Notes under the pieces: model-generated
Seen by the model: only the letters and a program-made list of their open reading frames with translations
Databases searched by the model: none
What the model was told of the DNA's origin: nothing
Program-made: the position numbers and the translations under genes
Assembly: GCA_001873365.1 (NCBI GenBank)
Contig: MNYZ01000093.1
Span: 504-64,503, forward strand
Length of the DNA: 64,000 nucleotides
Direction of reading: 5' to 3'
DNA from: Oscillatoriales cyanobacterium CG2_30_40_61
GTDB taxonomy: Bacteria > Cyanobacteriota > Cyanobacteriia > Cyanobacteriales > Microcoleaceae
In this document: positions 31,289 through 47,618 of the stretch, piece after piece
Position numbering within the stretch: the stretch's first letter is position 1
Layout of the letters: each line of letters begins with the position of its first letter

Positions 31289-32476
31289 ATGTCTGAAACT
31301 ATTGTTGTTAAAATTGGTACTTCGAGTTTAACCCAGTCAGCAACTGGACATTTAGCCCTATCGACCTTAGCCACATTAGTAGAAACCTTGACCGGACTGC
31401 AAAACCAGGGTTATCGCGTGGTTTTAGTGTCTTCGGGGGCGGTGGGAGTGGGACGCGATCGCTTAGGATTAACCGAACGTCCCCGGACTATTGCTTTAAA
31501 ACAGGCTGTAGCCGCGGTGGGTCAAGGTCGTTTAATGCGGGTTTATGATGATTTATTTAGTACCTTAAAACAACCAATTGCTCAGGTTTTACTAACTAGG
31601 GGAGATTTAGTACAACGCAATGGTTATGTGAATGTTTATAATACTTTTCAACAACTTTTAAAATTAGGGGTAATTCCAATTGTTAATGAAAATGATACCG
31701 TTGCAGTCGATGAACTAAAATTTGGAGATAATGATACGCTTTCGGCTTTAGTTGCGAGTTTAGTAGAAGCGGATTGGTTATTTTTATTAACCGATGTAGA
31801 TCGATTATATTCGGCCGATCCTCGGGAAAATCCTAATGCACAACCGATTAGTTTAGTAACTAATATGGAACAACTAGAAGAATTTCAAGTCAAAACGGGA
31901 GATTCTCGCAGTAGCTGGGGAACCGGAGGGATGATTACTAAAATTGAAGCCGCTAGAATCGCCACGGGATCGGGGGTGAGAACAGTAATAACTGAGGGAA
32001 AATATCCTCAAAATTTAGAAAAAATTCTCCAAGGGGAAGCCATTGGTACGCAATTTGAACCCCAGAATCGACCCGTTAATGCTCGCAAACATTGGATTGC
32101 AAATGTATTAGTTCCTACGGGAAAAATATATTTAGATGCGGGGGCGGTTCGGGCAATTTCTCAAGGAGGAAAATCCCTATTGGCGGCGGGAATTACTCAA
32201 GTTGAAGGTGAATTTAATCTTCAGGATTCTGTCCAAATTTGTAATTTAGACGGACAAGAAATTGCTAGGGGATTAGTTAATTATAGTCAGGGAGAATTGC
32301 AAAAAATTAAAGGTTTACATTCGGATAAAATTCCTGAGATTTTAGGTTATGACGGGGCGGATACGGTGATTCATCGTGATAATTTAGTCGTATTATCCCC
32401 ATTATCTATAACAGGGAACAGGGAACAGGGAACAGGGAACAGGGAACAGGGAACAGGGGGAAAAATTTCACTATAA
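31289..32476 (+). CDS. proB: Glutamate 5-kinase with PUA domain
   Basis: [36 protein letters not shown] and GTGGMITK. Confidence 0.97.
32411..32459 (+). repeat. STRR-type heptamer (ACAGGGA) x about 7, inside the proB 3' end
   Basis: Six perfect units plus one near-perfect unit, translated as [15 protein letters not shown]. Confidence 0.92.
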
Positions 32477-32513
32477 TCAATGCTTTTTTAAAATCAATTT
32501 GAGCTGGTTAATT

Positions 32514-32831
32514 ATGTCACTTTATGATAAAATATACGAGGTTGTCCATCAAATTCCTAGGGGAAAAGTCGCTACCTATGGGCAAGTTGCAGAACTCGCG
32601 AATCTCAGTAGAAAAGCTCGTTTAGTCGGTTATGCTTTATACAAAATTCCGTTAGAAACCACAGATATTCCTTGGCATCGAGTGATTAATGCTCAGGGGG
32701 AAATCTCTCATTCAGTATGGCGTAAAGGCACAGATTATCTTCAGCGATCGCGCTTAGAATCAGAAGGTATTCAATTTAACACCCAGGGTAAGATCAACCT
32801 TTCCCAATATCTATGGAAACCTACGGTTTAA
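32514..32831 (+). CDS. Alkyltransferase-like (ATL/MGMT family) protein
   Basis: IPRGKVATYGQVA and IPWHRVINAQG. Trp replaces the catalytic Cys of PCHR, as in ATL proteins. Confidence 0.9.
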   Translation: MSLYDKIYEVVHQIPRGKVATYGQVAELANLSRKARLVGYALYKIPLETTDIPWHRVINAQGEISHSVWRKGTDYLQRSRLESEGIQFNTQGKINLSQYLWKPTV

Positions 32832-33047
32832 AAATTTGGGATTTAAGCCAGAAAGACCGTTTTACTGCTAGAAAAGCTGCGAATTGATCATGCAGCATCT
32901 TGCCAATTCCCGATTCCCTGCTATAGTGTGATATCGGCTAATGTTTGATATAGTTTTAGGGCGAAATGCCGAACTTGCAAGCAAAACCGAACTATAATTC
33001 CTGCATGGCAAATCACCCCTACCAGGAGCATCGATCAGGAGGTAAAA

Positions 33048-33647
33048 ATGGCTGAAATCACAAAAGAAGAAATGCGAGAGCGTTTGGGCAATATTGACCA
33101 AATTCGAGATATCATATTTGGGTCGCAACTGCGGGACTATAACAGTAGGTTTGAGAAGATCGAGTCGGATTTGGCACTATTACAAGAAGATGCCCAGGAT
33201 CGGGTTGAACAACTCAAGACTATTTTAACCGCAGAAATCAAGTCTGTTGTTGAGAATTTAGACAAAAAAATTAAAACCCTGAGTTCAAATTCTCAGGAGG
33301 AGTTAACGGATTTAAGACAACAGGCTGATCGACTTAATCGGAAATTTTCCAGTAGTATTGAGGCGTTAGATGAGGCCTTAGATAGTCAAACTACTTCCTT
33401 GCGGGAAGAATTAGGACAAACCCGTGATCAGTTACAAGACGAAGTTCGCGGTCTGAAAAATCAAGTTTTAGAAGAACTAGAACGTCGATTTACTTTATTA
33501 ACAGAAGCCAAAATTTCCCGCGATGATATGGCTGAAGTTCTGTTTGAAGTCGGGATGCGATTAAAGGGGACTGAATTTGTTCCGGCTATTAAACAGGCGG
33601 TCGATGAAAAAAATTCCGGTTTTGCCCTCCCAGAACATCATCTATAA
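33048..33647 (+). CDS. All-helical coiled-coil (apolipoprotein-like) protein
   Basis: AGGAGG RBS, N-terminal LGNIDQIRDIIFG, then continuous heptad-like helices. Confidence 0.8.
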   Translation: MAEITKEEMRERLGNIDQIRDIIFGSQLRDYNSRFEKIESDLALLQEDAQDRVEQLKTILTAEIKSVVENLDKKIKTLSSNSQEELTDLRQQADRLNRKFSSSIEALDEALDSQTTSLREELGQTRDQLQDEVRGLKNQVLEELERRFTLLTEAKISRDDMAEVLFEVGMRLKGTEFVPAIKQAVDEKNSGFALPEHHL

Positions 33648-33663
33648 TTAATTTGGTCAAACT

Positions 33664-36258
33664 ATGACCTTTTCTCAGGGTGATTTAAGTCAAAATGATC
33701 AACAAAAGGGGATTTCATCTCAACAAGATTCATTGGATCAGGTTGAGAGTGATCCTCTGGAATTGTTGATTGATTTATTAATGGATTTAAGCGATTTTAA
33801 TGATTCTGATCCCGATTCTTCCTCCTCTTTACCCTTAGAAGATCAACAAAGCCTCAATATTTTAACACCAGATCCGATCCCTTCTCAACTAGAATCTCCG
33901 AACCCAATTCCATCAATTCATCTGTTATCTTCTGGAAAGTTAAAACCGGAAAATGATTTAATTTTGCGACTACTGCCTTTACTGGAAAAACCGCCGGCTG
34001 GGGCGATGGATGTTGATTATTCAGTCAGCGATATTGAAGAAGATTTAGGTGAAATTTCTGCCGAAACTTCAGCTAAACTAGAAGAAAATCAGGATATTAT
34101 TGAAGATATTAGTACGAGTTTACCCCCAAATCAAACAGATAGGATAAATTCTGCTAATTTAGAGAAATCTTTACCTGAAAATACCACATCAAAACCTCAA
34201 TTAAAATCCCAAAGTTGTTTAGCAAAATCTGCCAATATTCCAGAGATAAATTCTGTTTCTAATTCTAATGACCCTCTGGAGAAATTGCAAGAGTTAATGT
34301 TTGGGTCTAATCTCGGCGATGACTTAGATAACTTTAAAAGCCGTCTGTTCAACTGTGAGTTGCCAGAAGTTAGAGAATTAATAGAAAATATTAATCGTCA
34401 ATTAAGTCAGATTCAATTCCAAATTTATGAACCAGAACAATTAATTGAACTTTTACTTCCTACCATTGGTCAACTTTTGAACTTAAAAGTAATTGAGTCC
34501 AAAGACGAATTAATTCAAGCATTTATTCCAATTATTGATGAGGTAATTAAAAGGAAAGGTCAAACCGACCGACAGGCGATGAGTGCGGCTATTGCTGATT
34601 TAATTCCCCAAGCAATTAAACAACAAATTAAAAATTCTCCTAAAGAAATTGCTGAAGCTTTGGGGCCAGAAATTGGGGCAGCAATTCGAGAACAAATTAA
34701 AATTGATCGGAATGAAATTGCCGTAGCTTTAGCACCAATGATTGGACGCAGCATTAAAGAACAAGTGACTTTAGAACGAGATTCAATGGTAGATGCACTG
34801 TATCCGGTAATTGGCAGTACAATTACTCGTTATTTAGCAGAGGCTATTCAAGAAATTAATGAAAAGGTCAGTCAAGCCTTTAGTGTAGAAGGGTTACAAC
34901 GAAAAGTTAAATCCAAAGTTCAAGGAGTATCGGAAGCGGAACTTATTTTAAGAGAAGTCAGACACTTTATTGTACAAGCGGTGTTTTTAATTCATAAAGG
35001 TTCGGGTTTAATTATTGCTGAAATTAAACAACCGGATCAATCTCAAATGGAAGCGGAAATGGTGGCGGGAATGTTAACCGCAATTAGAAGTTTTGTTAAT
35101 GATTGTATTAGTCAAACCGGGGAAGTTTCCGAACTGAATGAAATTGAATATGGAGATTGTAAAATCATCCTAGAAGTGGCGGGATATTGTTATTTAGCAG
35201 TAGTAGTAAAAGGGGAACCTCCGAAAGCATTTATTAAAAAAATCCGTCAGACTATGGCAAATTTAGTTATGAAATATAGTCAGCCGATTAAAGACTTTGA
35301 TGGTGATCCTAATTCGGTTCCTGAAGGAATTATTAGTCAGCTTGAAGCCTTGATCAGAGTTGTAGCCCGTTTACAGACCCAGCAAAAGCCAATGACTTTA
35401 TTAATTTTGGGTTCTGTGGTTTTGAGTTTGATCCTAATTCCTTGGGGAATCCATCAATATCGACAACATAATTTGCGTCAGTTAGAAACAACATTAACCA
35501 CCACTTTAGGAGCGGAGTCTGAGTTATCAATTTATACTTTAAAGGTTAAAGCCCAGGGAAGAACCTTAGCATTAGAGGGGAAAGTTCCCAACGCTCGATT
35601 AAAAGATAAAGTTGAAAAAATTGCCCAAGAAACGGCTCCAAATTTTCAAATTAATAATCGGATTATTGCAGTTAAAGTTCCTCCCGATCCGATCAAAGTT
35701 GCTGCTGAAGTTAAGCAAATGGTGACTATAATGAATCAAATTAGTGGGATATCAATTTCTGCTGATTATCAAAATTCCCAAGTGAATTTGAAAGGAAAAG
35801 TGATTAAATCTGAAGATATTCAGAAAATTACTCAAGCTTTTCAGAAAATTGAAGGGGTAGATTCGGTAATTGCTAATCTAACGGTGCAACCTCTACCAAT
35901 AGCCACTAGAATTTATTTTGGTTTTGGTTCGGCGGAATTAGTCTTAAAAGATATTCGAGGTAAACTTGTGCCTCTGGCTGAATATTTGAAGCGATATCCC
36001 GATCTCAAATTAACAATTATTGGTTATAGTCATGAACAGGAAAAATCTCGAAAACATCCTGAGTTAGCCTTAGAACGTGCTCAAACTATCCAAAATGTTT
36101 TAGAGGATTTGGGAATTGATCGGCGACGCATAGAAACAGTTGGTAAAACTGAACGCCCAGGGGGAGTTGATCCAAATCAAGAACTTTGGTTGAGTCAAAC
36201 GGTTTTATTTGAGATAATACCCTTACAGTTTGAACAAAATAAACCCCAAAAACTATGA
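33664..36258 (+). CDS. Single-pass membrane protein: disordered N-terminus, 22-residue helical repeats, putative longin/roadblock-like domain, TM, two BON-like domains and an OmpA-like domain
   Basis: TM segment MTLLILGSVVLSLILIPWGI, BON-like LALEGKVP and VNLKGKV, and OmpA-like IYFGFGSAEL...LTIIGYS...LALERAQTIQNVLEDLGID. Confidence 0.8.
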   Translation: MTFSQGDLSQNDQQKGISSQQDSLDQVESDPLELLIDLLMDLSDFNDSDPDSSSSLPLEDQQSLNILTPDPIPSQLESPNPIPSIHLLSSGKLKPENDLILRLLPLLEKPPAGAMDVDYSVSDIEEDLGEISAETSAKLEENQDIIEDISTSLPPNQTDRINSANLEKSLPENTTSKPQLKSQSCLAKSANIPEINSVSNSNDPLEKLQELMFGSNLGDDLDNFKSRLFNCELPEVRELIENINRQLSQIQFQIYEPEQLIELLLPTIGQLLNLKVIESKDELIQAFIPIIDEVIKRKGQTDRQAMSAAIADLIPQAIKQQIKNSPKEIAEALGPEIGAAIREQIKIDRNEIAVALAPMIGRSIKEQVTLERDSMVDALYPVIGSTITRYLAEAIQEINEKVSQAFSVEGLQRKVKSKVQGVSEAELILREVRHFIVQAVFLIHKGSGLIIAEIKQPDQSQMEAEMVAGMLTAIRSFVNDCISQTGEVSELNEIEYGDCKIILEVAGYCYLAVVVKGEPPKAFIKKIRQTMANLVMKYSQPIKDFDGDPNSVPEGIISQLEALIRVVARLQTQQKPMTLLILGSVVLSLILIPWGIHQYRQHNLRQLETTLTTTLGAESELSIYTLKVKAQGRTLALEGKVPNARLKDKVEKIAQETAPNFQINNRIIAVKVPPDPIKVAAEVKQMVTIMNQISGISISADYQNSQVNLKGKVIKSEDIQKITQAFQKIEGVDSVIANLTVQPLPIATRIYFGFGSAELVLKDIRGKLVPLAEYLKRYPDLKLTIIGYSHEQEKSRKHPELALERAQTIQNVLEDLGIDRRRIETVGKTERPGGVDPNQELWLSQTVLFEIIPLQFEQNKPQKL

Positions 36259-36782
36259 TTTCTAAAAAAATTTGCTTAGTTGGTGATTTTGGAGTTGGAA
36301 AGACCAGTTTAATCCGCAGATTTGTGGATAGACAGTTTAGCGATCAATATTTGTCTACCGTTGGAGTCAAAATTTCTCGAAAGATTGTTGAACTGGCTGA
36401 AATGAACTCAAAAATAACTGGATCTGTACAATTGTTAATTTGGGATATTGAGGGTCATACTAAATTTAAAGCGATCGCCCCGAGTTATTTACAAGGAGCG
36501 AGTGGTGTGGTGATTGTTGCAGACGTTACCCGACAGGAAACAATAGAAAGATTACCTGAACATATTAATTTATTTCTCTCTGTGAATCCCAAAGGATGTA
36601 TAGTGATAGCATTGAATAAAATTGATTTGATCGACTCAACAGAACTTGAACATCTAATCAAACTAGCCCCTAATTTGAAGCAGTATGATCAGATTTTGTC
36701 CAGCCATCAAACTTCCGCAAAAACTGGAGATCATGTAGATACAATTTTCTATGAGTTATCCCAGAAATTTATCTATAGTTAA
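36255..36782 (+). CDS. Stand-alone Ras-superfamily (Rab-like) small GTPase
   Basis: G1 GDFGVGKT, G2 YLSTVG, G3 WDIEG, G4 NKID and G5 TSAKTG. It is 175 aa with no CAAX tail and overlaps the previous stop codon (ATGA). Confidence 0.93.
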   Translation: MISKKICLVGDFGVGKTSLIRRFVDRQFSDQYLSTVGVKISRKIVELAEMNSKITGSVQLLIWDIEGHTKFKAIAPSYLQGASGVVIVADVTRQETIERLPEHINLFLSVNPKGCIVIALNKIDLIDSTELEHLIKLAPNLKQYDQILSSHQTSAKTGDHVDTIFYELSQKFIYS

Positions 36783-36820
36783 AGAATTACTTCTAGTTTT
36801 TTTGTGTTCTGGGATGAGTT

Positions 36821-38698
36821 ATGAATAACCTTTTAAGAAAGATCTTAGCACCCAAAAAAATCGAATATTTAACCATTAACTCGGAGTTAGTTATTGTAGA
36901 GTCCTCCTGGGGAGTCGCCCGGTTTGCAGATTCCCCAGAACAATTACAATTAGGAGAAGATGTCTGCATGGCTTTTCCTGAGTTAATTGGATTAGAAGAA
37001 ACCTTTAATAAAATTTTATTGAGTCAAATCAATCAGTTTGAACTGAAAGGAATTTCTAGGACAATCACTCAAGAAAATACAATTTATTTTGATATTTATG
37101 TTTTGAAAAATCCTGATAATTCTTGCCATAACCAAGAACTATTGATTGTGTTTGAAGATACAACAGAATCGATTTTAAAGGAACAAAAAATTACTCAGGT
37201 TGCTAAGGAATATGGATTGGCTTTAAGTGCTTTAGAAAAAACTAAAATATATTTAGATAAAATCATTAATTCGATGACAAATATATTAATTGTCACAGAT
37301 GACCAAGGAATGATCAAAATTATCAATCAAGCTACATCGTTTTTATTAAAATATTCAAAAGCAGAATTAATCGGGCAATCTATTTTAACTATTTTTAAAG
37401 ATAATCAACTTAAAAATTATCCCCAAGTCAATCAATTTTTATTATCTGCTGATCTATTAATGCCTGTTGAAGTAATTTGTCAGACCAAAATAGGAACAAA
37501 TTTTCCCGCATCCTTTTCCTGTGCAGCCATGAATTTTGATCCCCATGATTCCCAGGAATTTGTTTGGATTGGTCAGGATATGACCGCACAAAAACGAGTA
37601 GAATTTCAGTTGTATCAACAAGCGGAACGTGATCGCATCTTAAAAAGAATTACACAACATATTCACCAATCTTTAAGTTTACAAGAAACTTTACAAACAA
37701 CGGTGACTGAGGTTCTGGGATTTTTAAATGTGGATCGGGTTTTAATTTATCGATTTTACTCCTCAGAAAAAGGACAAGTAATTGCTGAATCCGTCAGAAA
37801 TTCTTCTCTGACTTCCCTGGACAATATTATTTTTAGTTCTGAGTTTAATTCCTTATTATTATCTCATTTTCAAACAGGTAAAATCGATGCTTTTGATAAT
37901 ATTTATCAGGTTTCAGTTGACTCTAAATATTTAGATTATTTAATTCAATTAAAAGTAAAATCTAGTTTGATAGTCCCGATTATAATTTATGATGCTTCTG
38001 TTTCACAACAGTCTAGCAATAATAATCAACTTTGGGGATTATTAATCGCCCATCAATGCCAGCAAACCCGCCATTGGGAAGTCTGGGAAACAAACTTATT
38101 AGAAGAATTAGCCCTACAAATTGCCATTGCACTACAACAGGCTGAACTTTATCAACAATTACAAATTGTCAATCAAGAATTGGAACAGTTGGTTATTGAA
38201 GATGGGTTGACAAAAGTGGCAAATCGTCGTCAGTTTGACCGGGTACTTGATCACGAATGGAATCGCTGTAGACGAGAAGGAGTCATTCTATCCCTAATTT
38301 TACTAGATATTGATTATTTTAAACAATATAATGATAACTATGGACATTTAGCTGGAGATTTTTGCTTACAACAAGTTGCTCAAGTTTTACAGAATGTGAT
38401 TCAACGGAATACCGATTTAGTGGCTCGTTATGGGGGGGAAGAATTTGCTATCATTTTACCCAATACCGATATCAATGGAAGTATGCACCTGGCTGAAAAA
38501 ATTCGCCAAGGAGTGGAAGCATTGCAAGTGGAGCATCTCAAATCAGAGGTGAGTAGTTATGTCACAATTAGTATTGGAGTAGCGAGTTTAATTCCGATTG
38601 AAGATCTTACTCCTAAAACTTTGGTTTCTCAAGCTGACCAAGCTTTGTATAAAGCCAAAAATAATGGGCGCAATTGTATTTTTATTGCATCCAGATAG
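36821..38698 (+). CDS. Diguanylate cyclase: N-terminal PAS-like domain, PAS, GAF and GGDEF
   Basis: DGLTKVANRR, DIDYFKQYNDNYGHLAGD and RNTDLVARYGGEEF (RxxD I-site plus GGEEF). The GAF reads DRVLIYRF...LWGLLIAHQC. Confidence 0.93.
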   Translation: MNNLLRKILAPKKIEYLTINSELVIVESSWGVARFADSPEQLQLGEDVCMAFPELIGLEETFNKILLSQINQFELKGISRTITQENTIYFDIYVLKNPDNSCHNQELLIVFEDTTESILKEQKITQVAKEYGLALSALEKTKIYLDKIINSMTNILIVTDDQGMIKIINQATSFLLKYSKAELIGQSILTIFKDNQLKNYPQVNQFLLSADLLMPVEVICQTKIGTNFPASFSCAAMNFDPHDSQEFVWIGQDMTAQKRVEFQLYQQAERDRILKRITQHIHQSLSLQETLQTTVTEVLGFLNVDRVLIYRFYSSEKGQVIAESVRNSSLTSLDNIIFSSEFNSLLLSHFQTGKIDAFDNIYQVSVDSKYLDYLIQLKVKSSLIVPIIIYDASVSQQSSNNNQLWGLLIAHQCQQTRHWEVWETNLLEELALQIAIALQQAELYQQLQIVNQELEQLVIEDGLTKVANRRQFDRVLDHEWNRCRREGVILSLILLDIDYFKQYNDNYGHLAGDFCLQQVAQVLQNVIQRNTDLVARYGGEEFAIILPNTDINGSMHLAEKIRQGVEALQVEHLKSEVSSYVTISIGVASLIPIEDLTPKTLVSQADQALYKAKNNGRNCIFIASR

Positions 38699-38786
38699 AG
38701 GGTTCTTGCTTTAATTGCATCTACTAATTAAAAAAAAATCTAACAATCAAATTAGAAAAAAGTTCTTTATCATCAATCCAGGGATT

Positions 38787-40952
38787 ATGAACCATTTATT
38801 TAAAAACTTTTTAATAGCACGAAAAATTGATTATCTAGTGATCGATCCAGAGTTAAAAATACTGGATTTTTCTCAAGGAGTTATTCGATTTACTGAAGGT
38901 TCAGAAGTTTTAAATCAAGGAGAAGATGTACAATATTACTTTCCCGAATTGATTGGAACAGAAGATATTATTGATGCCATTATTCAAGGGTATCAAGATT
39001 ATTTTGAATTAAATGCTATGAGTCGGCAAATTGAGAAAACAACATCAATTTATTTTAATATTTACTTTCTGGGTGTTTCCATTCAAGGAGAACATATCCC
39101 CGAATTAATGTTACTATTCGAGGATGTGACACAACGAATGGAACTAGAACAGGCTTTAGTTCAAGAAACTAATGAATCACGATTACTTTTAAATGCCTAT
39201 TCTCATTCTCAACAATATATTGATCGAATTATTACCTCCATGGAGGATATTTTAATCGTTACCAATCAACAAGGTATGATTAAAAAAGTCAATCTCGCTA
39301 CTTTATCCCTATTAGAATATAGTCAATCGGATTTAATTAATCACTCTCTTGCTTCTTTTGTAGAAGATGATACTTGTTTGCAAGAATATTTAAAGGAATC
39401 TTCTCTGAAAAAACAAGACTTTTTATTTAAAAATTTGGAGTTAACCTGTCAGAAAAAACATGGCGGTAAAATTGTCCTAGAATTTTCAATCTCGACCTTA
39501 ACTACTGATACGGATGATTCCCTAGACTTTATTTATGTGGGTCGAGATATTACCGCCAGAAAACGCGCTCAACAACGGATGTTTACTCAGTATCAAATTT
39601 CTCGGATTCTGTCTGAAGCTCCGAATATTAATGAAGCTCTCCTACAGATTTTGCAATCCACTTGTGAAAGTTGGGGATGGGTTTTAGGAGAAGTTTGGAT
39701 GTTGGAAAAATTTTCAGAAGCACCGTTAATTTTAGGGAATAAAATCTCTGAAACTAATAGTTTTTCCCGCAACCATCCCGATGTTAAATTGGAGTGTATT
39801 AAACATTGGGTTAACTCTAAATCCGGTATTGATGAAATTCAAGAACTCTATCAAAAAATTAACCTAGATTCTAGTATAACTTTACCCAGTAAAATTTGGC
39901 ATAGTGGTTTTGCCCATTGGGTTGAAGATGTGATGGTTAATGACCAATTTACTCAAAAAGATATTGTCCAAATTCTGGGATTACGCGCTGGGTTTGGATT
40001 TCCGATTAAAGATGGAAAAGAAGTCTTAGGGGTGATCACTTTTTGGGGTACAGAAATTTGTTTTCCCGATCCGGAATTGATGCAAACCATGACTACAATT
40101 GGCAGTCAACTCGGTCAATTTATTAAACGAAAATTGGCTGAAATTGCTCTCCAATATCAACAACAACAAACAGAAAAATTACTTTTAAATATTCTGCCGG
40201 AAGCGATCGCAGAACGTCTAAAAAAAGAAGAAAAAACCATAGCAGAACATTTTTCTGAAGTCACGGTTTTATTTGCTGATATTGTTGGATTTACGCAGAT
40301 TTCATCTACCTTAAGTCCGATTGCTTTAGTGAATTTACTCAATGAATTATTCTCAGCTTTTGATCGATTAACCGAAAAATATGGCTTAGAAAAAATTAAA
40401 ACTATTGGTGATGCTTATATGGTGGTGGGCGGATTACCCGCTCCCTGTCCCAATCATGTGATCGCGATCGCCGAAATGGCTTTAGATATGCAAAAGGCAA
40501 TTCTTGATTTTAATGAAACTCATGATCAAGTATTAAGTTTGCGCATTGGCATCCATAGTGGGGCAGTGGTTGCGGGAGTGATTGGGATTAAAAAATTCCT
40601 CTATGATTTGTGGGGAGATACGGTCAATATTGCCTCGCGAATGGAATCTCACGGGTTAGCAGGACGGATTCAAATTAGTGAAGATACCTTCCATCTTTTA
40701 CCAGATCAATATGTTATATTCAAACGAGGGATAATTTCAGTCAAAGGCAAAGGAGCAATGAATACTTATTTTTTATTAGGCCGAAAAGGAGAAAAATATC
40801 TTCCCATTATTGAGCAAGTTATTCCGTCAAAAAATCAATGCAAAAATGCTGCGCCACAGCATTTAGTTGAAGTGATTCATAATAAAATTCAAGACGGCTA
40901 TCCCCTAAAATTCGATGAAATTACAGATAGCTCACAGGATTTCCAGATTTAG
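38787..40952 (+). CDS. Class III adenylate cyclase: N-terminal PAS-like domain, PAS, GAF and cyclase
   Basis: LFADIVGFT, EKIKTIGDAYM and YDLWGDTVNIASRMES. The Lys/Asp purine-specifying pair indicates ATP rather than GTP. The ATG at 38787 aligns with the start of the DGC. Confidence 0.92.
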   Translation: MNHLFKNFLIARKIDYLVIDPELKILDFSQGVIRFTEGSEVLNQGEDVQYYFPELIGTEDIIDAIIQGYQDYFELNAMSRQIEKTTSIYFNIYFLGVSIQGEHIPELMLLFEDVTQRMELEQALVQETNESRLLLNAYSHSQQYIDRIITSMEDILIVTNQQGMIKKVNLATLSLLEYSQSDLINHSLASFVEDDTCLQEYLKESSLKKQDFLFKNLELTCQKKHGGKIVLEFSISTLTTDTDDSLDFIYVGRDITARKRAQQRMFTQYQISRILSEAPNINEALLQILQSTCESWGWVLGEVWMLEKFSEAPLILGNKISETNSFSRNHPDVKLECIKHWVNSKSGIDEIQELYQKINLDSSITLPSKIWHSGFAHWVEDVMVNDQFTQKDIVQILGLRAGFGFPIKDGKEVLGVITFWGTEICFPDPELMQTMTTIGSQLGQFIKRKLAEIALQYQQQQTEKLLLNILPEAIAERLKKEEKTIAEHFSEVTVLFADIVGFTQISSTLSPIALVNLLNELFSAFDRLTEKYGLEKIKTIGDAYMVVGGLPAPCPNHVIAIAEMALDMQKAILDFNETHDQVLSLRIGIHSGAVVAGVIGIKKFLYDLWGDTVNIASRMESHGLAGRIQISEDTFHLLPDQYVIFKRGIISVKGKGAMNTYFLLGRKGEKYLPIIEQVIPSKNQCKNAAPQHLVEVIHNKIQDGYPLKFDEITDSSQDFQI

Positions 40953-41008
40953 GATAAAATAGTCAAACCCTTGGTAATTTACAATTTTCTGACACCTTAA
41001 AAATTTAA

Positions 41009-42133
41009 ATGACCTTAATAGAATCTTGGACAAATCAGTGGCGTTTCCAACTGGAAAATGACTACCCAAACTCTAGTCAAGACAAACGGGAAAGTATCAT
41101 TAATTGGTTACTAGGAGAACATTTTACGACCTTAGATTCTCTCCCTATTAACCAACAAGAAAGAATCCAATTAGGGTTAAACTTTCGCTATCAAATTCTG
41201 CAACAGCGCTATTTAGATACGCCGCCGGAAAAATCCTATCGAAATTTAATGCAGCGATTAGGGAGTTTAATGATTCTACGCCAAAAAGTTCGTCTTTGGG
41301 TGGCAACCAGTCGCGATCGCCAACGTCAAGTGGTGGATGTTTTACAAGAAGTGATACAGGAAATGTTGCATAGCGATCGCTATTTACAACAACAAATTCA
41401 ATGGATTTCTCAGTGTACAAATGACCGACAATTAAGCAATGCTTTACTATTCACAACAGTAGAAGAATATTGTCTCCGTCCGATTCGGAATCAACCCCTA
41501 TTAGTCTATCGATTTGTTAACTATTTACGTCGTTCCCAACGGGGAGGATTAACCCAAGTTCCCGCCGGAGAATGGATTAAACAATTATCCGATGAAATTC
41601 TCTCAGAGGAAACCGAAGACACCATTAGTTTATTAGATAATCAAGCTATTTCTGAATACGAAGATGAGCAATATTTTCAAAACCAACAAAACCAACGATT
41701 AAAAGTACAGGCGGAATTTGAAGACTATTTAATTAAAAACGTAGATTCAACGGCGGCGGAATGGTTGCGACTGTATTTACAAGGATTATCCCAAGAAGCG
41801 ATCGCTCAAAAGTTAAATTTACCGATTAAACAAATCTATCGACTCCGAGAAAAAGTTAGTTATCATGCGATTAAAAACTTCACCTTAAAACAGAATCCCG
41901 AATTAGTGACCAGTTGGTTAGGAACCTCGGTATCAGAACATCGTTTAGGATTAAATTCCGAACAATGGGAACAATTTTGGCAAGGTTTAAACCCCAATCA
42001 ACGTCAAATTATTGAACAATTAAAAGCCGGAGAAACCCTAGAAACTATTGCTAAAACCCTAAACTTAAAAATTACCCAAATTCAGCAGGAATGGACTACA
42101 ATGTATCTAATGGCTCAAGATATTCGGAATTAA
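41009..42133 (+). CDS. HetZ-related protein (sigma-factor-like, two C-terminal HTH regions)
   Basis: RESIINWLLGE, YRILQQRYL, LVYRFVNYLRR, LRLYLQGLSQEAIAQKLNL and GETLETIAKTLNL. Confidence 0.75.
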   Translation: MTLIESWTNQWRFQLENDYPNSSQDKRESIINWLLGEHFTTLDSLPINQQERIQLGLNFRYQILQQRYLDTPPEKSYRNLMQRLGSLMILRQKVRLWVATSRDRQRQVVDVLQEVIQEMLHSDRYLQQQIQWISQCTNDRQLSNALLFTTVEEYCLRPIRNQPLLVYRFVNYLRRSQRGGLTQVPAGEWIKQLSDEILSEETEDTISLLDNQAISEYEDEQYFQNQQNQRLKVQAEFEDYLIKNVDSTAAEWLRLYLQGLSQEAIAQKLNLPIKQIYRLREKVSYHAIKNFTLKQNPELVTSWLGTSVSEHRLGLNSEQWEQFWQGLNPNQRQIIEQLKAGETLETIAKTLNLKITQIQQEWTTMYLMAQDIRN

Positions 42134-42206
42134 TATACTGGGTTTAACCCCTTCTCTATTTTGGTTGTAGTCCCAGTAACACAAATTAGGTTAAAATAAT
42201 ATTGAT

Positions 42207-42308
42207 AGGACTTACGCACCAAACCGGGTTTGGTGAACGAGAAATCCAGATTTTATCCGCAAAATCATGGCCAGAAACCCGGTTTCTTTGGTCTTGTGCG
42301 TAAGTCCT
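42207..42308. mobile_element. 102-bp MITE-like element with TIRs AGGACTTACGCA...TGCGTAAGTCCT enclosing a pair of AAACCGGGTTT palindromes
   Basis: The 12-bp TIRs are perfect. A degenerate homologue lies at about 10910-11036, and a left-end-like copy near 3478. Confidence 0.75.
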
Positions 42309-42363
42309 GATTGATCAATACAGCAACCTCTAAAAAATCTCCTGTTTCCCATTTTGAAAACCT

Positions 42364-45300
42364 ATGATTCCCCAAAAACTGACCCTAAAAAATTTCCTCA
42401 GTTATCGAGAAGCCACCCTAGACTTTAGTGGATTACATACCGCTTGTATTTGTGGTTCCAACGGGTCAGGAAAGTCATCTTTATTAGAAGCAATGGCTTG
42501 GGCAATTTGGGGGGAAAGTCGGGCAGAATCAAAAGATGATATTATCTATATGGGGGAATTAGAAACCCAGGTTGATTTTATATTTATTAGTCAGGGAAAC
42601 CTATATCGGGTAATTCGTAATCGTCGCCGAGGTCAATCGGGAGCCTTAGAATTTCAAGTAGCAACCACCGTTTTACAAGAAATTGAAGATTTAGATCAAA
42701 TCAAGTTTCGCACCCTCACAGAAAAGGGAATAACTGTCACTCAACAGAAAATTATCGACTACTTAAAACTAGATTATGATACCTTTACTAATTCCGCCTA
42801 TTTGCGTCAGGGAAAAGCGGACGCATTCATGATCAAACGTCCCGCCGAACGGAAAGAAATTCTGGCAAATTTATTAAAATTAGATCAATATGATGGTTTA
42901 TCAGAAAAAGCTAAAGACTCAGCCAAAAGTTATAAATCCCAAGCCGAAATTTTAGAACAAACCCTAACCAGTAACCAAGTCCAAATTGATCAAAAAGGTC
43001 AACTGGAACAGGATATTATTCAACTACAAAATACAATTGATCAGCTTCAAGAAAAACAAGCCCAAGACCGAGAGCAATATCAACAGCTACAAGCCCAACA
43101 ACATCATCGTCAAGCTTGGGAAAAGTTATTAACCGGACAACAACAACAGCATCAAACCTTTGCTCAAGATTATCGCAGATTACAACAGGAATTAACTACA
43201 ACTCAACAGCAAAATCAAGAATTAGAAGCAGTATTACAACAAGAAACAGAAATTCAAACCGGATATAATAATTTTATCACCCTACAAACCACCGAAGAAA
43301 CCCTATCGGCTCAATTTAAAATCTATCAAGATTCCCAACAACAACGCCAGCAATTACAAGAACAACAACGCCAATATCTAAACACCCTACAACAGCAAAT
43401 TCAAGGTCTACAAGCTCGTTTAGAAGCGTTAACCCAACAGGAGCAAGATTACTCCCAAATCTTCAGCCAAAAATCCGATATTGAAACGGGATTAGAACAG
43501 TTACAAACCGCTCGTAATCGGTTAACCCAGTTTGATCAATTACAATTAGAAGTTACCCCGATTTTACAACAGCGTCAACGGCTACAAACGGAGTTAGATC
43601 GGGCTCAATCTCGTCAACAAGCTCGGTTAGAGGAATTAAAAACCTCCGTGGGAAAATTGCAACGAACTCTCAACCATCATCGCCCCCAATTAGAACAAAA
43701 ATCCCAAACTATTGCTAATCAAATTATTGAACTCGATAAGAAGAAAGTTTATCAACTCAGAGTCAGGGAAAAAGGACAAGAACGTCATGGTTTTATTGAC
43801 CGCTTGAATACGGTTAAACGGGATTATGAAGAAAAATTAGTCGAACTAGATCAGAAGATTAAACTATTATCAAAATCGGAATCTGAAGCAACTGAAACCG
43901 AAGAATTACCGTTATTGCGATCGCAGTTTCCCCCTTGTCCACTTTGCGATCGCCCCCTAGACGAACATCACTGGAATTTAGTAATTTCTAAACAGCAAAA
44001 CCAACAACAGGAATTCATAAATCAAATTTGGGTGATCCATGAACAGTTAGTAGTTGCTGATCGAGAACTTAAAATATTACAGGAGGAATATCGACAAATT
44101 CAAGAGGATTTATTACCCTACGAAGAATTACGAGAACAACGGGTAAAAATTCAAGCTCAGTTAGAATCCTTAGATAAAGATGAACAACAATTACAACAAT
44201 TAATATTAGAAGAAAAAGCCGTTCAAAATATTTTAGATACGGGAGACTATGCAACGGATTTATATGCAGAATTACAGGATTTAGAGCAGAAATTAAGCCA
44301 ACTAAATTATAATGAACAAAGCCATGCGTTAGCCAGGAATGAGGAAAAACGGCATCGTTGGGCGGAAATTAAATATAGTCAAATTCGCGATGCTCAGGAT
44401 AAATTAACAAAAATTCAGACCCAAAAACCAGAATTAGAAACCCAAATTCAAACCTTAACCCAAACCTTAACCGAACAAAAAAACAATTCTGAAATACAAC
44501 AAGAAATTATTACCTTAGAACAAAAAATCAGCCAAATGGGTTATAATGTAGAGGAACATAATCGCATCCGGGCGGAGTTACGTCAAGCTCAAATTTGGTT
44601 AACTAGAACCGAACAACTCAACCAAGCCAAACAACAATATCCCATCCTACAAAAACGCCTTCAAGAGTTAGAAACCATCACCCAAGAAAGGGTAAAAAAC
44701 CTACAAGCAATTCAAGGACAAATGGAACTATTACAACAGCAATTAAAAGCAACTCCCGACCCGACAGAATCATTAAAACAATTAGAGCAGTTAATTCAAC
44801 AACAACAGCTAAAATTAGATAGTTATTTAGGTCAATTCGGAAGTTTACAACAACAACAAACTCAATTAGACAATTTAAACGCTCAACAAATCGAACTTAA
44901 AACCCAATTAGATACCGCCCGTCGTCAATATCGAGTTTACGATGAATTAGGAAAAGCCTTTGGTAAAAATGGGATTCAAGCCTTAATGATTGAGAATGTT
45001 TTACCACAATTAGAAGCAGAAACTAATCAAATTTTATCTCGATTATCTGCTAATCAACTCCATGTTCAATTTGTTACCCAGCGCACTAGCGGGCGCGGGG
45101 GAAAATCATCAAAAAATACCGCTAAAATGATTGAAACCTTAGAAATTTTAATAGCAGATGCGCGGGGAACTCGTTCTTATGAAACCTATTCCGGGGGGGA
45201 GGCTTTTAGAATTAATTTTGCTATTCGTTTAGCCCTAGCAAAATTATTAGCACAACGGGCGGGAACTTCTCTACAAATGTTAATTATTGATGAGGGATTT

Positions 45301-45500: not shown

Positions 45501-47618
45501 CTATATTAATTTACTAGACAGAGGTGCTGTTTCGCCTTGACACACCCATGCACCCCAAAAATAGGGATGATTTAACGGTTGATAATTGGGATCGGGATAG
45601 TTGTTTTCGGGGTATAATTCTTTGAGAACAGTTTGACCGAGTTCGGTGGTTTGTAATTTAGAAATTGTCGCGTTTTTAATATAATCTTGGGCAAATTCTA
45701 ACGCTTGTAAACGGCCACAACCCGTATTTATTTTATCAAAAAATAACTTCATTAACAACGCCGTGGCTTTATCGGGAACAGACCATAAACTCATAAGTAA
45801 GGTTTTTGAACCGGCGATCGCAAATGCCCGACGCAACCCAAATACACCCTCTCCTGATGCTAAATCTCCTAATCCCGTTTGACAAGCAGATAAAATACTA
45901 ATTTCCGTTGCCCATAAATCTAATGCTGCCACGTCTAGGGCAAAAACTAATCCTTTTCCGTATTCTTTCGATAAGGGTTGACCCCGTAAAACTGTGTTAG
46001 TTCCTGTTAAGGCTAATACCGATCTTAACATCGGATCTTCAACATTGGAAAAAAGATTTTCTGAGGAAGGTTTAACTTCTTTTTCGATAATAGTTGCCAG
46101 AGAATTCAAGAAATCTGCTAAATTTTGCCGATTATTTTCTTTTGCTAAATCCGCATATAATAGTATCAACGCTAATAAATCTTTATTCCATAAATCTTGA
46201 TGATTTTTTAACAGGTTGATTTCTTCTCCTTCAGGACAACTGAGCAAATCTTGAATTAAATGATGATAATTTTGTTCTTGTTTCTGCCCAACAAATAACC
46301 CGTGAGTAGCAAACAATAGAATTTTAGGAGATTTATGGCGATGGAGATAGGACTCGCGGGCTTCATTTTCTAAATAGGGTTTGACCTTCAGAAGTTTAGC
46401 AACGGTTTCTCCTAAGAAACGGGTTCCTAATACTCGTTTACAACCCGATAAAGTTTGTAGCAGGGTTTGGGGTTCGTTGGTGTTGAGTTCAATATTACAG
46501 TTTTGAGGACTATTTTTAATAGTTTTATCCTCATCTTCTGGAAAGGGTTGGGGATAATCAAAATTCGGATCAGCCATAATTAAGGGAGCCGATGGGATAG
46601 CATGGGAAACGATAGTTTTCCGCAAGATTTCTCGCCCCACACTTAAATAACTGATACTGTAATCTTCTATTAATAACCGTCCGTTTTCTTGGGTTAACAG
46701 TTGAAAGGGGAGCAGGTTTAAGTTGCTGTCGGGGGCGATGATCAGTGACCTAACCCCCCCAGCCCCCCTTCCCTGCGAGGGAATGGGGGTGACATCTTTC
46801 TCCCCTCGCCTCGCAGGAGATGGGTCGGGGGTGACATCTTTCTCCCCTCGCCTCGCAGGAGAGGGGTTGGGGGAGAGGTCATTCAACACCTGAAACCCCG
46901 ATCTAACAACAGCCGCCGCAACCCTTGACCATGACTAACGAAAGAGGGAGAAGACCGCACAACAACCTCCTCCTCATCCCCGAAGTCTAAACGGCCGATC
47001 GCATTTTCTTGAGGAGGGGAGAAATTATCAGGAGGAAGGGAAACCCCCGCCCGAAATAGACGAATTAACCGATCAATTTCCGCCGCATCCCCTAGATCCA
47101 CCATCGCCACTTGATCCGGTTGTTGGGCCGGGAGAATAAACGCCAGATAACGGGCGGGTTTCCAGTGTTCCTGTTCAGGGGCGGTGAAGTCATACACCCG
47201 AAAATGCACAAACTCTAACAGGGTACTACCGAGGGGAAGTTCCAACGCCACCGCTTGACGGTCGGGGAGGGCGTTTTGCAGTTGCACTTCTGGAATTTCA
47301 CGGGCCAGCAGTCGGTTAATTTCATCGGCTTGTTTTTGCGACGTCCCGATCTGCTCAAGGATATCGTCTCGCTGGTCAAATTGACTGGCTAGGGAGATGG
47401 TGAGAGAAATAATTTTATTGTTGATCGAGGTTAATAACCTGTCGGTTGAGTTGTTTCCATTGTTTTTTCAACTTTCTTGATTGATCCAATGGATTTAATT
47501 CTAATAACTTATCCTTCAGGTAGAGAACTAACTTGATTAAAACAACAAAAAAAATAACAGGAAAAATTAGAATTACTTGAATTAAATTTTTGTAAACCGT
47601 GACTTTGTTCTTATTCAT
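45501..47618 (-). pseudogene. CHAT (caspase-like) domain gene split by two apparent single-base frameshifts (about 47417 and about 46895) and carrying an in-frame repeat insertion
   Basis: The three pieces 47415-47618, 46883-47287 (frame open up to 47467) and 45501-46889 join into one continuous CHAT-type protein. The catalytic motifs FATHG and LSACQTG and the terminal HPYFWGAW are present. Confidence 0.75.
46746..46881. repeat. GC-rich miniature repeat element with imperfect TIRs and an internal 42-bp tandem duplication, inserted in the CHAT gene
   Basis: TGACCTAACCCCCCC...GGGGGAGAGGTCA. The unit GGGGGTGACATCTTTCTCCCCTCGCCTCGCAGGAGA occurs at 46785 and 46827. Confidence 0.85.

Follow-up and report, generated by a model that had tools for sequence, protein, structure and literature searches.

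The window analysed here, a 64,000-nucleotide stretch of DNA from Oscillatoriales cyanobacterium CG2_30_40_61 (contig MNYZ01000093.1), carries the gene of a Ras/Rab-like small GTPase that is preceded by genes for a coiled-coil protein and a membrane protein and followed by genes for a diguanylate cyclase and an adenylate cyclase. Both cyclases begin with the same kind of N-terminal domain, referred to below as the NTD. The genes, and the parts of the two cyclases, are arranged as follows.

33048 to 33647, + strand: coiled-coil protein, called DUFY, 199 aa (open reading frame; weak coiled-coil-type Pfam matches only)
33664 to 36258, + strand: membrane protein, called DUFX:OmpA, 864 aa (Pfam BON, E 3e-11; OmpA, E 3e-11)
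36255 to 36782, + strand: Ras/Rab-like small GTPase of the Group 1 Rup type, 175 aa (Pfam Roc, E 3e-27; Ras, E 1e-26; NCBIfam small_GTP, E 5e-18)
36821 to 38698, + strand: diguanylate cyclase, 625 aa, NTD-PAS-GAF-GGDEF (Pfam GGDEF, E 1e-53; GAF, E 5e-17; PAS_9, E 1e-8)
36821 to 37210, + strand: NTD of the diguanylate cyclase, aa 1-130, a predicted divergent PAS fold (AlphaFold2 and Foldseek)
37253 to 37588, + strand: canonical PAS domain of the diguanylate cyclase, aa 145-256, resembling its adenylate cyclase counterpart (Pfam)
38198 to 38674, + strand: GGDEF catalytic domain of the diguanylate cyclase, aa 460-618 (Pfam)
38787 to 40952, + strand: class III adenylate cyclase, 721 aa, NTD-PAS-GAF-cyclase (Pfam Guanylate_cyc, E 7e-67; PAS_9, E 1e-11; GAF_2, E 7e-5)
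38787 to 39176, + strand: NTD of the adenylate cyclase, aa 1-130, with the same residue signature, including Q122 and Q126-E-T-N-E130
40242 to 40778, + strand: class III cyclase catalytic domain, aa 486-664 (Pfam)

Both cyclases retain intact catalytic motifs, which agrees with the first-pass annotation that had placed two different second-messenger enzymes at this locus. The diguanylate cyclase has an intact active-site GGEEF (aa 538) and, five residues upstream of it, an RxxD inhibition site, RNTD (aa 529). The adenylate cyclase contains the motifs FADIVGFT (aa 496), KTIGDAYM (aa 538) and WGDTVNIASRMES (aa 609), of which, following what is established for class III cyclases, we take the Asp residues of the first two to bind metal, a Lys/Asp pair to confer ATP specificity and the Asn and Arg of the third to act on the transition state. 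The Lys/Asp pair suggests that this enzyme prefers ATP over GTP. Its likely start is the ATG at 38787 and not the upstream TTG at 38715, because the ATG aligns with Met1 of the family.

The N-termini of the two enzymes are paralogues, with a likeness far above chance. BLASTP of the full proteins aligned 275 residues with 108 identities (39%), one gap and an E value of 6e-55, a span that runs from the NTD (aa 1-125) across the linker and over the first canonical PAS domain (aa 145-260). Beyond residue 275 the same comparison returned only chance-level segments (E 0.38 or worse). Over the first 125 residues alone there are 52 identities (42%) with no gaps (E 6e-32), and both copies fit the family profile at E values of 1e-41 to 1e-46. 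Thus the claim of a paralogous N-terminal domain in the two cyclases, as well as that of a similar linker and PAS domain behind it, is confirmed by alignment, and the peptides that had been quoted for it are exact and correctly placed in the open reading frame list.

The NTD had also been described as PAS-like, and structure prediction agrees. An AlphaFold2 model (pLDDT 85) has the order beta-beta-helices-beta-beta-beta-helix, with strands at residues 15-19, 24-28, 72-83, 86-96 and 107-113, four helices between the second and third strands, and a final helix at 115-124. This model contains a five-stranded antiparallel sheet, flanking helices, a D-x-T end and a linker helix, which are the features that define the PAS superfamily. 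A Foldseek search of the PDB gave 104 matches at E<=1e-3, and all 50 of the 50 matches listed are PAS-fold domains with LOV and haem-PAS sensors among them; they include the PAS domain of Rv1364c, LOV domains, DosP and FixL. At the sequence level the NTD matched no Pfam family even at E 10 and gave no convincing match among PDB sequences, and a profile-profile comparison (hhalign) with the adjacent canonical PAS domain was in full register but weak (probability 34%, E 4e-4). The NTD is therefore PAS-like by predicted fold while lying outside every curated PAS sequence family, and we predict that it folds as a divergent PAS domain.

Conservation of NTD residues was measured over 199 non-redundant family sequences. 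In the diguanylate cyclase the resulting signature reads S29, G45, D47, F52-P53-E54, G57, E59, R80, Y89, D113, T115, Q122 and Q126-x-x-K-E130, with an E-D-T-T-E motif at aa 112-116. Q122 and Q126 are each conserved in 93% of the sequences; Q126, which sits in the linker helix that follows the PAS core (family consensus L-V-Q-x-x-N-E), is invariant in 18/18 aligned pairs of GTPase and NTD. These residues bear on another reading of a PAS fold, namely that the NTD is an ordinary sensor of a small ligand or cofactor that lies near the GTPase through a common pathway or operon, with the GTPase acting elsewhere, for example in localising the complex or controlling the membrane protein. The fold is indeed that of ligand-binding PAS, LOV and haem domains, and behind the NTD come another PAS domain, a canonical one, and a GAF domain, as in common multi-sensor proteins. 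However, we know of no cofactor-binding motif that resembles the most conserved NTD residues (F-P-E, G57, E59 and the linker Q-x-x-N-E).

A profile of the NTD matches at least 403 representative protein clusters at E<=1e-3, and the domain is nearly always N-terminal. Its fusion partners include histidine kinases, GGDEF domains, class III cyclases and a sigma-54 activator, among others; the domains found in 78 scanned NTD proteins were PAS (71), histidine kinase (30), GGDEF (16) and cyclase (16). Adenylate cyclase is a recurrent partner, accounting for 57 of the roughly 146 NTD proteins at the genome loci described below. The family also contains stand-alone NTD-PAS proteins of 255 aa. This diversity is relevant to the idea that the NTD is a mere dimerisation domain, forming a homodimer or a heterodimer of the two enzymes and receiving no input of its own. 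N-terminal PAS domains often drive dimerisation, GGDEF and class III cyclase domains function as dimers, and the NTD model begins with an N-terminal cap helix, all of which would suit such a role. Nevertheless, the same invariant, surface-type motifs occur in NTDs on unrelated outputs and even in the stand-alone NTD-PAS proteins, and dimerisation leaves the synteny with the GTPase unexplained, so that we regard this explanation as very improbable.

That synteny was examined from both sides. From the NTD side we took the best-scoring 80 of 172 genome matches to a narrow peptide pattern, a sample that therefore favours the core NTD subfamily, and found the GTPase in the same cluster at 69 of these 80 loci, mostly directly upstream of the first NTD gene. 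The remaining 11 loci lie at contig ends or have a giant upstream gene that extends past the 10-kb flank, which makes the association 69/69 among informative loci. From the GTPase side, an NTD gene follows within 1 kb downstream at 59 of 74 informative metagenome loci; the gap is at most 20 nt in 43 of the 59, and in 12 the genes overlap by 4 nt. Additionally, GTPases that are only 43-50% identical to this one precede NTD-GGDEF, NTD-histidine kinase or NTD-sigma-54 activator proteins, and at two loci (L084, L042) a protein kinase-NTD-GGDEF protein likewise lies 3' of a GTPase. An NTD gene immediately 3' of the GTPase gene thus recurs in cyanobacteria and in more distant bacteria, often translationally coupled and with many outputs. 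Neighbours in an operon may share a pathway without physical contact between their products.

The downstream NTD gene is absent at 15 of the 74 informative metagenome loci, several of which carry DUFX and DUFY. Such loci, together with a conserved core made up of DUFY, DUFX and the GTPase, would fit a docking of the enzymes on DUFX or DUFY through the NTD, with the GTPase controlling that scaffold. However, the NTD gene adjoins the GTPase gene and not those of DUFX or DUFY, and there are minimal pairs of GTPase and NTD-PAS protein with neither DUFX nor DUFY detected in the fetched flank (L034, L041, L048, L057 and L173). Docking on the scaffold consequently appears quite improbable.

The association also has exceptions. 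No GTPase was found within 1.5-8 kb on either side of NTDs that stand behind receiver (P0087, P0107) or winged-helix (P0091) domains, nor upstream of three lower-scoring proteins with an N-terminal NTD (P0152, P0143, P0132); for P0140 there was none in the 8 kb downstream, with 466 nt of upstream sequence covered. Since orphan NTD proteins exist, the link between NTD and GTPase is strong and not exclusive. The first-pass annotation had asked whether hits of an NTD profile are confined to loci with the GTPase, which was the case at every informative locus among the best-scoring ones and was not the case for the orphan, receiver-linked and winged-helix-linked NTDs. The orphans are what an ordinary ligand sensor would predict, but such a sensor gives no reason for the NTD to track one particular small GTPase across phyla, with more than six kinds of output, in minimal modules of two genes and with genes that overlap by 4 nt; we therefore consider an ordinary sensor unlikely, if less so than docking on the scaffold.

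The proteins encoded upstream of the GTPase offer a candidate for its regulation. At 45 of the 80 related genome loci, a DUFY homologue with 66-96% identity precedes the GTPase gene. The 864-aa membrane protein, the stop codon of which overlaps the GTPase start (ATGA), has 1068 homologues, including cce_4707 of Crocosphaera subtropica ATCC 51142. It consists of a cytoplasmic helical region, a predicted longin/roadblock-like domain, one predicted transmembrane helix and periplasmic BON and OmpA-like peptidoglycan-binding domains, two parts of which are located as follows.

34933 to 35295, + strand: predicted longin/roadblock-like domain, about aa 424-544 (AlphaFold2 and Foldseek)
35392 to 35451, + strand: single predicted transmembrane helix, aa 577-596 (mean Kyte-Doolittle score 2.29)

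The longin/roadblock-like region has no sequence-level match. In an AlphaFold2 model built from a 36-sequence alignment (mean pLDDT of the whole model 71) it has the order alpha-beta-beta-alpha-beta-beta-beta-alpha, and its pLDDT, averaged over blocks of ten residues, ranges from 51 to 96, with the lowest values near the second helix and the highest in the C-terminal strands and helix. Foldseek matched it in the PDB to AP sigma subunits, the longin domains of Ykt6 and Sec22, TRAPP subunits, Mon1-Ccz1, LAMTOR/Ragulator, the C-terminal domains of RagA/C and MglB (E 4e-5 to 2e-3, target-normalised TM-scores 0.4-0.7). The cytoplasmic part of the protein is tentatively predicted to hold a fold that is found in known regulators of small GTPases.

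The GTPase itself is a single-domain protein, identical or near-identical copies of which are named "Rab family GTPase" at NCBI, and contains G1 GDFGVGKT, switch I Thr35, G3 WDIEGH, G4 NKID and G5 TSAK, with motif conservation gauged over 70 homologues. G1, G2, G4 and G5 are canonical, and the catalytic Gln after the G3 DxxG is missing. Among 155 GTPases this position is variable and seldom Gln (H in 73, S in 33, N in 16 and Q in 10).

We consider it likely that the NTD reads the GTPase and that the two cyclases are the outputs of a small-GTPase module of the Group 1 Rup kind. From the synteny we infer that this reading is physical and involves direct binding. The NTD would provide the surface that reads the nucleotide state of the GTPase, and the signal would then pass along the conserved linker helix (L-V-Q-x-x-N-E) to the PAS and GAF domains and on to the dimeric catalytic domains. 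If the NTD does so in both cyclases, one GTPase would therefore set c-di-GMP and cAMP synthesis in parallel, as we propose. The longin/roadblock-like domain would be a likely regulator, as an exchange factor or a GAP platform, and would connect the GTPase with a signal from the cell envelope. A more specific and rather doubtful version of this model is that the NTD is a PAS-fold effector and GAP in one, which binds the GTP form and supplies in trans a catalytic Gln, either Q126 or Q122 and perhaps together with R80, with the longin/roadblock-like domain of the peptidoglycan-anchored membrane protein as exchange factor; Q126 could equally serve signal transmission. If true, bacteria would possess a full GEF-GTPase-GAP/effector cycle that connects the cell envelope with cAMP and c-di-GMP, with phosphorelays and with sigma-54 transcription.

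Motility, phototaxis and aggregation of filamentous cyanobacteria are under the control of cAMP and c-di-GMP, and the module may therefore tie these behaviours to the condition of the cell envelope. The locus offers an easily assayed read-out in the form of two soluble enzymes with simple nucleotide products, and it defines a candidate GTPase-binding domain of 130 residues with a short list of invariant residues.

The neighbourhood of the Group 1 Rup GTPases was described as a predicted GTPase signalling module by Wuichet and Søgaard-Andersen (2014, Genome Biol Evol; PMC4316618). Their survey ranks these GTPases as the bacterial proteins most like eukaryotic Ras/Rab/Rho, gives the gene order DUFY>DUFX:OmpA>Rup (Table S2) followed by a signalling output protein, notes an invariant Gln in the conserved N-terminal region of that protein and the lack of the G3 Gln in the Rup GTPase, and lists Ava_0879, Npun_F1891, cce_4705 and AM1_2998 as cyanobacterial examples (PMC4316618). 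By sequence, our locus matches this module in gene order (coiled-coil protein, membrane/OmpA protein, GTPase, outputs), GTPase motifs and the Gln of the output N-terminus. DUFX here is homologous to cce_4707, the neighbourhood of Cyanothece 51142 being entered in the paper under cce_4705, its first gene, and both enzymes carry Q122 and Q126; we infer which of these two is the Gln meant in the paper. Since the same neighbourhood and Gln-bearing N-terminal region were already published (PMC4316618), the first-pass proposal that the GTPase supplies the input is supported and is not new. The 2014 survey treated the fourth gene as single, typically a diguanylate cyclase/phosphodiesterase fusion or a histidine kinase, assigned no fold to the NTD and no domain to DUFX, and stated that no Group 1 Rup member had been studied experimentally (PMC4316618); full-text literature searches found no later experimental work on members of the group. 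In contrast to the single output gene, there are two tandem NTD genes here, and adenylate cyclase is a regular partner. The new elements are thus the PAS fold predicted for the NTD, the recurrence of adenylate cyclase among its partners, the tandem fan-out to several outputs and the predicted longin/roadblock-like domain of the membrane protein, which extend an existing computational prediction and do not reveal a new kind of system.

The Streptomyces conservon (CvnA-D) and MglA/MglB combine a small Ras-superfamily GTPase with a signalling enzyme and a regulator of the roadblock type, an analogy already drawn in the 2014 paper (PMC4316618). Their GTPases belong to the MglA family and not to that of the Rup GTPases, the histidine kinase of the conservon is a membrane sensor that lacks the NTD, and MglB is a stand-alone roadblock protein whereas the longin/roadblock-like fold here is predicted to be embedded in an OmpA-bearing membrane protein. 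The role that we propose for the NTD is also like that of Rab/Ras effectors and of yeast Ras-Cyr1. In budding yeast, the adenylate cyclase Cyr1 has a dedicated N-terminal domain to which a Ras-family protein binds in its GTP form, and this binding switches the synthesis of a second messenger. Eukaryotic Ras-association domains have a ubiquitin-like fold, unlike the predicted PAS fold of the NTD, and there is no sign that the effector domains share an origin. TBC-domain RabGAPs give a Gln and an Arg in trans, and the GTPase's own catalytic Gln is dispensable or absent. The NTD likewise has near-invariant Q122 and Q126 together with R80 and is paired with a GTPase that usually lacks the G3 Gln, but its fold is unrelated to that of TBC domains and the role of its Gln is putative.

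The window holds five co-oriented genes separated by short gaps in the region 33048-40952.

33048-33647, + strand: coiled-coil protein of 199 aa (ORF)
33664-36258, + strand: protein of 864 aa (ORF; Pfam BON and OmpA-like)
36255-36782, + strand: small GTPase of 175 aa (ORF)
36821-38698, + strand: diguanylate cyclase of 625 aa (Pfam PAS, GAF and GGDEF)
38787-40952 counted from the ATG, + strand: adenylate cyclase of 721 aa (Pfam PAS, GAF and class III cyclase)

The stop codon of the 864-aa gene overlaps the start of the GTPase gene in the sequence ATGA. The peptides that led the first-pass annotation to assign a common N-terminal input domain to the two cyclases match the window sequence exactly, and the common domain itself is confirmed. 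Residues 1-275 of the 625-aa and 721-aa proteins are 39% identical (E 6e-55), and the first 125 residues alone align without gaps at 42% identity (E 6e-32). This stretch of about 125 residues, here called the NTD, has no Pfam assignment in either protein. The diguanylate cyclase keeps the catalytic motif GGEEF with an RxxD site upstream, the adenylate cyclase keeps its two metal-binding Asp, a Lys/Asp pair and Asn/Arg, and with these catalytic motifs present both enzymes are predicted to be intact. A promoter and terminator scan of 32400-42400 found sites no more numerous than in shuffled sequence and is uninformative for operon structure. Public sequencing runs that contain most of the window sequence are DNA metagenomes (hot spring; groundwater), and the sole RNA-labelled public runs have about one fifth of sampled words in common with it.

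A gene for HetZ-related protein 2 (41009-42133, + strand; NCBIfam NF037965, E 8e-173) starts 56 nt past the adenylate cyclase. It adjoins the cyclase only in the Planktothrix clade; for this reason it is not counted in the module, and it probably lies outside it. Elsewhere in the window, an RNase E/G homologue (28256-30547, + strand; Pfam E 2e-95) has a long C-terminal tail with short tandem repeats of the PERxxPERSxSERIIL and EIPxIPEI types. The predicted N-terminus of a CHAT-domain protein (45501-46889, - strand; Pfam E 1e-46) is a tandem repeat of 13 residues, and the listed GTG start may therefore extend the ORF into a repeat element.

No Pfam model matched the NTD even at E 10, and no convincing match was found among PDB sequences. 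An AlphaFold2 model from a four-sequence alignment (pLDDT 85, pTM 0.79) opens with a cap helix and two strands, continues with four short helices and then three strands, and closes with a C-terminal helix. Foldseek matched this model to 104 PDB entries at E<=1e-3, and all 50 of the matches listed are PAS-fold domains, including the Rv1364c PAS domain, LOV domains, DosP and FixL. Profile-profile alignment with the adjoining canonical PAS domain is in full register, with E-D-V-T-E-R-M facing R-D-I-T-E-R-K, but is weak (probability 34%). Taken together, the structural matches, the empty Pfam search and the weak profile alignment place the NTD, as modelled, in the PAS fold and outside the curated PAS sequence families. 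As a word-indexed search of proteins, queried with the NTD by itself or with a 40-sequence profile, returned only a handful of fragments, 1.84 billion representative proteins were searched exhaustively by profile. This search yielded 403 clusters at E<=1e-3, of which 251 reach E<=1e-10, and in these proteins the NTD is almost always N-terminal. Among 78 NTD proteins, a PAS domain follows the NTD in 71, and the other domains are histidine kinase (30), GGDEF (16), class III cyclase (16), receiver (16), SpoIIE (2) and protein kinase (1). Across 199 non-redundant members, numbered as in the window diguanylate cyclase, the conserved positions are S29 (97%), G45 (89%), F52 (90%), P53 (100%), E54 (99%), G57 (98%), E59 (98%), R80 (90%), Y89 (95%), T115 (91%), Q122 (93%), Q126 (93%) and E130 (90%). 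No "Rosetta stone" fusion of GTPase and NTD was present among the 150 best family members.

The distribution of the NTD was examined with one genome per species and a 10-sequence alignment, a 40-sequence one being too diverse. The scan gave 172 relatives, and DNA with 10-kb flanks was retrieved for the 80 best-scoring loci; these are the top scores to one narrow peptide pattern and thus favour the core subfamily. The first-pass annotation had proposed to test whether hits of such a profile are restricted to loci that contain the GTPase, and within this sample a homologue of the window GTPase is present at 69 of the 80 loci. The genes usually run from the coiled-coil protein through the BON/OmpA protein and the GTPase to two successive NTD proteins, at times followed by one more, and the GTPase stop is typically 8-40 nt ahead of the nearest NTD gene. 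The remaining 11 loci, in which no GTPase was present, were considered as counter-examples and rejected, as they are uninformative on inspection. In five the NTD gene is at a contig edge, cut just upstream, and two correspond to the distal gene pair in a cluster of the Laspinema type, whose GTPase is 8 kb upstream. In the other four, as at L014, L015 and L018, where the GTPase is further upstream, a gene longer than 1,900 aa or a shared reverse-strand regulator reaches the edge of the fetched DNA.

All 80 loci are on cyanobacterial contigs save three that bear only the label "uncultured bacterium" and one labelled Rhizobium. The latter (L022; CALRKB020000003.1, "MAG: Rhizobium sp. Q54") has a contig GC of 0.47, its GTPase and NTD hybrid kinase are almost identical to their counterparts in a Pseudanabaena MAG (L035), and it is probably a mis-binned cyanobacterial contig. 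At the 20-kb locus of Planktothrix sp. GU0601_MAG3 (L001; CP136572.1), each syntenic gene (coiled-coil, OmpA, diguanylate cyclase, adenylate cyclase, HetZ-related, SbcC and glutamate 5-kinase) is broken into two to four tblastn pieces or shortened ORFs, which looks like assembly indel error and not biology.

The converse scan, a search of metagenomes with a GTPase alignment, gave 80 loci, 74 of them with enough downstream sequence. An NTD gene lies within 1 kb downstream of the GTPase at 59 of these 74; the gap is <=20 nt in 43 of the 59 and a 4-nt overlap in 12, and such frequent overlaps suggest translational coupling. Divergent GTPases with 43-50% identity to that of the window, on contigs of GC 0.29-0.57, are followed after 12-33 nt by an NTD-PAS-GGDEF protein (~380 aa), an NTD-histidine kinase or an NTD-PAS-sigma-54 activator, and a protein kinase-NTD-GGDEF protein likewise sits after a GTPase. 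There are also two-gene modules that consist of the GTPase with a 255-aa NTD-PAS protein or with an NTD hybrid kinase; no coiled-coil or OmpA protein was detected in their fetched flanks. Sigma-54 enhancer-binding NTD-PAS-AAA+ proteins are directly downstream of a Rup-type GTPase on two metagenome contigs of GC 0.52-0.57, L154 (7528-9264), whose protein has a Fis-type HTH, and L156 (7557-9023), whose gene reaches the end of the available DNA. Reading of the GTPase by the NTD would account for this synteny. If the NTD were an ordinary ligand-sensing PAS domain, as its predicted fold might suggest, the pattern would be less well explained; the same holds for an NTD that docks to the scaffold proteins instead of the GTPase, and for one that serves purely in dimerisation.

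Because the best 80 genome loci favour the core subfamily, the gene context of 12 further representative proteins was checked. Some NTDs are internal and follow either a receiver domain or a winged-helix DNA-binding domain of the OmpR type (P0087/L085, P0107/L086, P0140/L081, P0091/L087). No GTPase is found within the 1.5-8 kb read on each side of P0087 and P0107 (behind a receiver) or P0091 (behind the winged helix), or in the 8 kb downstream of P0140, for which the upstream sequence is only 466 nt. In these proteins, a receiver domain occupies the position at which action by the GTPase would otherwise be expected. Of seven further proteins that start with the NTD and score lower, P0124 and P0149 belong to GTPase clusters, P0152, P0143 and P0132 do not, and two are uninformative. 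These orphan NTDs keep the F-P-E and Q-x-x-N-E motifs, and a GTPase from another locus may act on them in trans. Conversely, 15 of the 74 informative metagenome loci have no NTD gene downstream of the Rup-type GTPase (L097, L117, L126, L128, L136, L139-L142, L144, L146, L148, L150, L153, L164). Several of these retain the coiled-coil and OmpA proteins; the gene after the GTPase is a PAS-GGDEF-EAL protein without NTD at L148 and a borderline NTD match (E 0.014) at L164. Thus the proposed restriction of the NTD to GTPase loci stands as a very strong association but fails as exclusivity.

The NTD proteins at the genome loci comprise 57 class III cyclases, 41 histidine kinases, 24 hybrid kinases, 17 NTD-only or truncated proteins and five GGDEF proteins. 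The common order in Oscillatoriales is GTPase, NTD-PAS-histidine kinase (~518 aa) and NTD-PAS-GAF-PAS-PAS-cyclase (~928 aa), and in the Planktothrix clade, the window included, a GAF-GGDEF enzyme stands in the position of the kinase. Identity to Planktothrix is 93% for the window GTPase and 86-88% for the window NTD. A neighbour-joining tree built from the NTD and PAS domains unites most cyclase copies from different genera, likewise unites most kinase copies, and sets the Planktothrix GGDEF copies apart on a long branch of their own. On account of this grouping by output, the two window copies are old paralogues, and the idea that the NTD was duplicated locally in recent time was rejected. 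The fan-out from one GTPase to two or three outputs is a conserved trait of the cyanobacterial modules.

The GTPase is named "Rab family GTPase" in identical or near-identical NCBI entries. Conserved features in a set of 70 homologues are the Rab-like P-loop GDFGVGKT (with F in 67), an invariant switch I Thr and the motifs W-D-[LI]-E-G, NKxD and TSAK. The residue after G3 is variable and seldom Gln (H 73, S 33, N 16 and Q 10 among 155 GTPases). The 864-aa protein has a single transmembrane helix (aa 577-596) with the BON and OmpA-like domains on the periplasmic side. Its conserved cytoplasmic part, modelled by AlphaFold2 from a 36-sequence alignment (mean pLDDT 71), has helical repeats followed by an alpha-beta-beta-alpha-beta-beta-beta-alpha domain. 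Foldseek matches to this model include AP sigma subunits, longin SNAREs, TRAPP subunits, Mon1-Ccz1, LAMTOR, RagA/C C-terminal domains and MglB, all of which are platforms that regulate or bind small GTPases. These matches are suggestive, though not firm, evidence of a longin/roadblock-like domain.

The first-pass annotation had proposed that one upstream signal, plausibly the GTPase itself, is read by a common module and fans out to two second messengers. The paralogy, the predicted PAS fold, the intact enzymes and the synteny support this proposal, and from the synteny we infer that the NTD reads the GTPase itself. The longin/roadblock-like domain of the peptidoglycan-anchored membrane protein would set the nucleotide state of the GTPase on an envelope cue, and the GTP form would bind the NTD of each output enzyme. 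The conserved linker helix would then relay the signal to the PAS/GAF domains and on to the catalytic dimer, such that c-di-GMP and cAMP synthesis would be altered together. The NTD might also act as a GAP through Q122 or Q126; for Q126, which is located in the helix after the PAS core, transmission would be an alternative role.

Group 1 Rup GTPases and their neighbourhood were defined by Wuichet and Søgaard-Andersen (2014, PMC4316618). Their neighbourhood includes a coiled-coil protein, a protein of unknown domain with a membrane helix and an OmpA domain, a GTPase without the G3 glutamine, and an output protein, "typically" a diguanylate cyclase/phosphodiesterase fusion or a histidine kinase, with an invariant glutamine in its N-terminal region. 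In their proposal this glutamine might act on the GTPase in trans, and all four proteins belong to one signalling complex. Their Table S2 lists the order DUFY>DUFX:OmpA>Rup (coiled-coil protein, OmpA membrane protein, GTPase) for Anabaena variabilis (Ava_0879 cluster), Nostoc punctiforme (Npun_F1891 cluster), Cyanothece 51142 and Acaryochloris, and cce_4707 of Cyanothece 51142 is homologous to the 864-aa protein of the window. The same neighbourhood having been described, the first-pass proposal re-derives a published, untested prediction. No Rup member had been characterised as of 2014 (PMC4316618), and full-text literature searches found no later work on Rup members. The locus adds one more member to a module already defined computationally and its novelty is modest, but it is still of value as a tractable way into a family of bacterial Ras/Rab-like switches that is unstudied. 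To the published description our analysis adds the predicted PAS fold of the input domain, a candidate longin/roadblock regulator, the adenylate cyclase and the sigma-54 activators (the latter not mentioned in PMC4316618) as outputs, and the tandem fan-out to several outputs.
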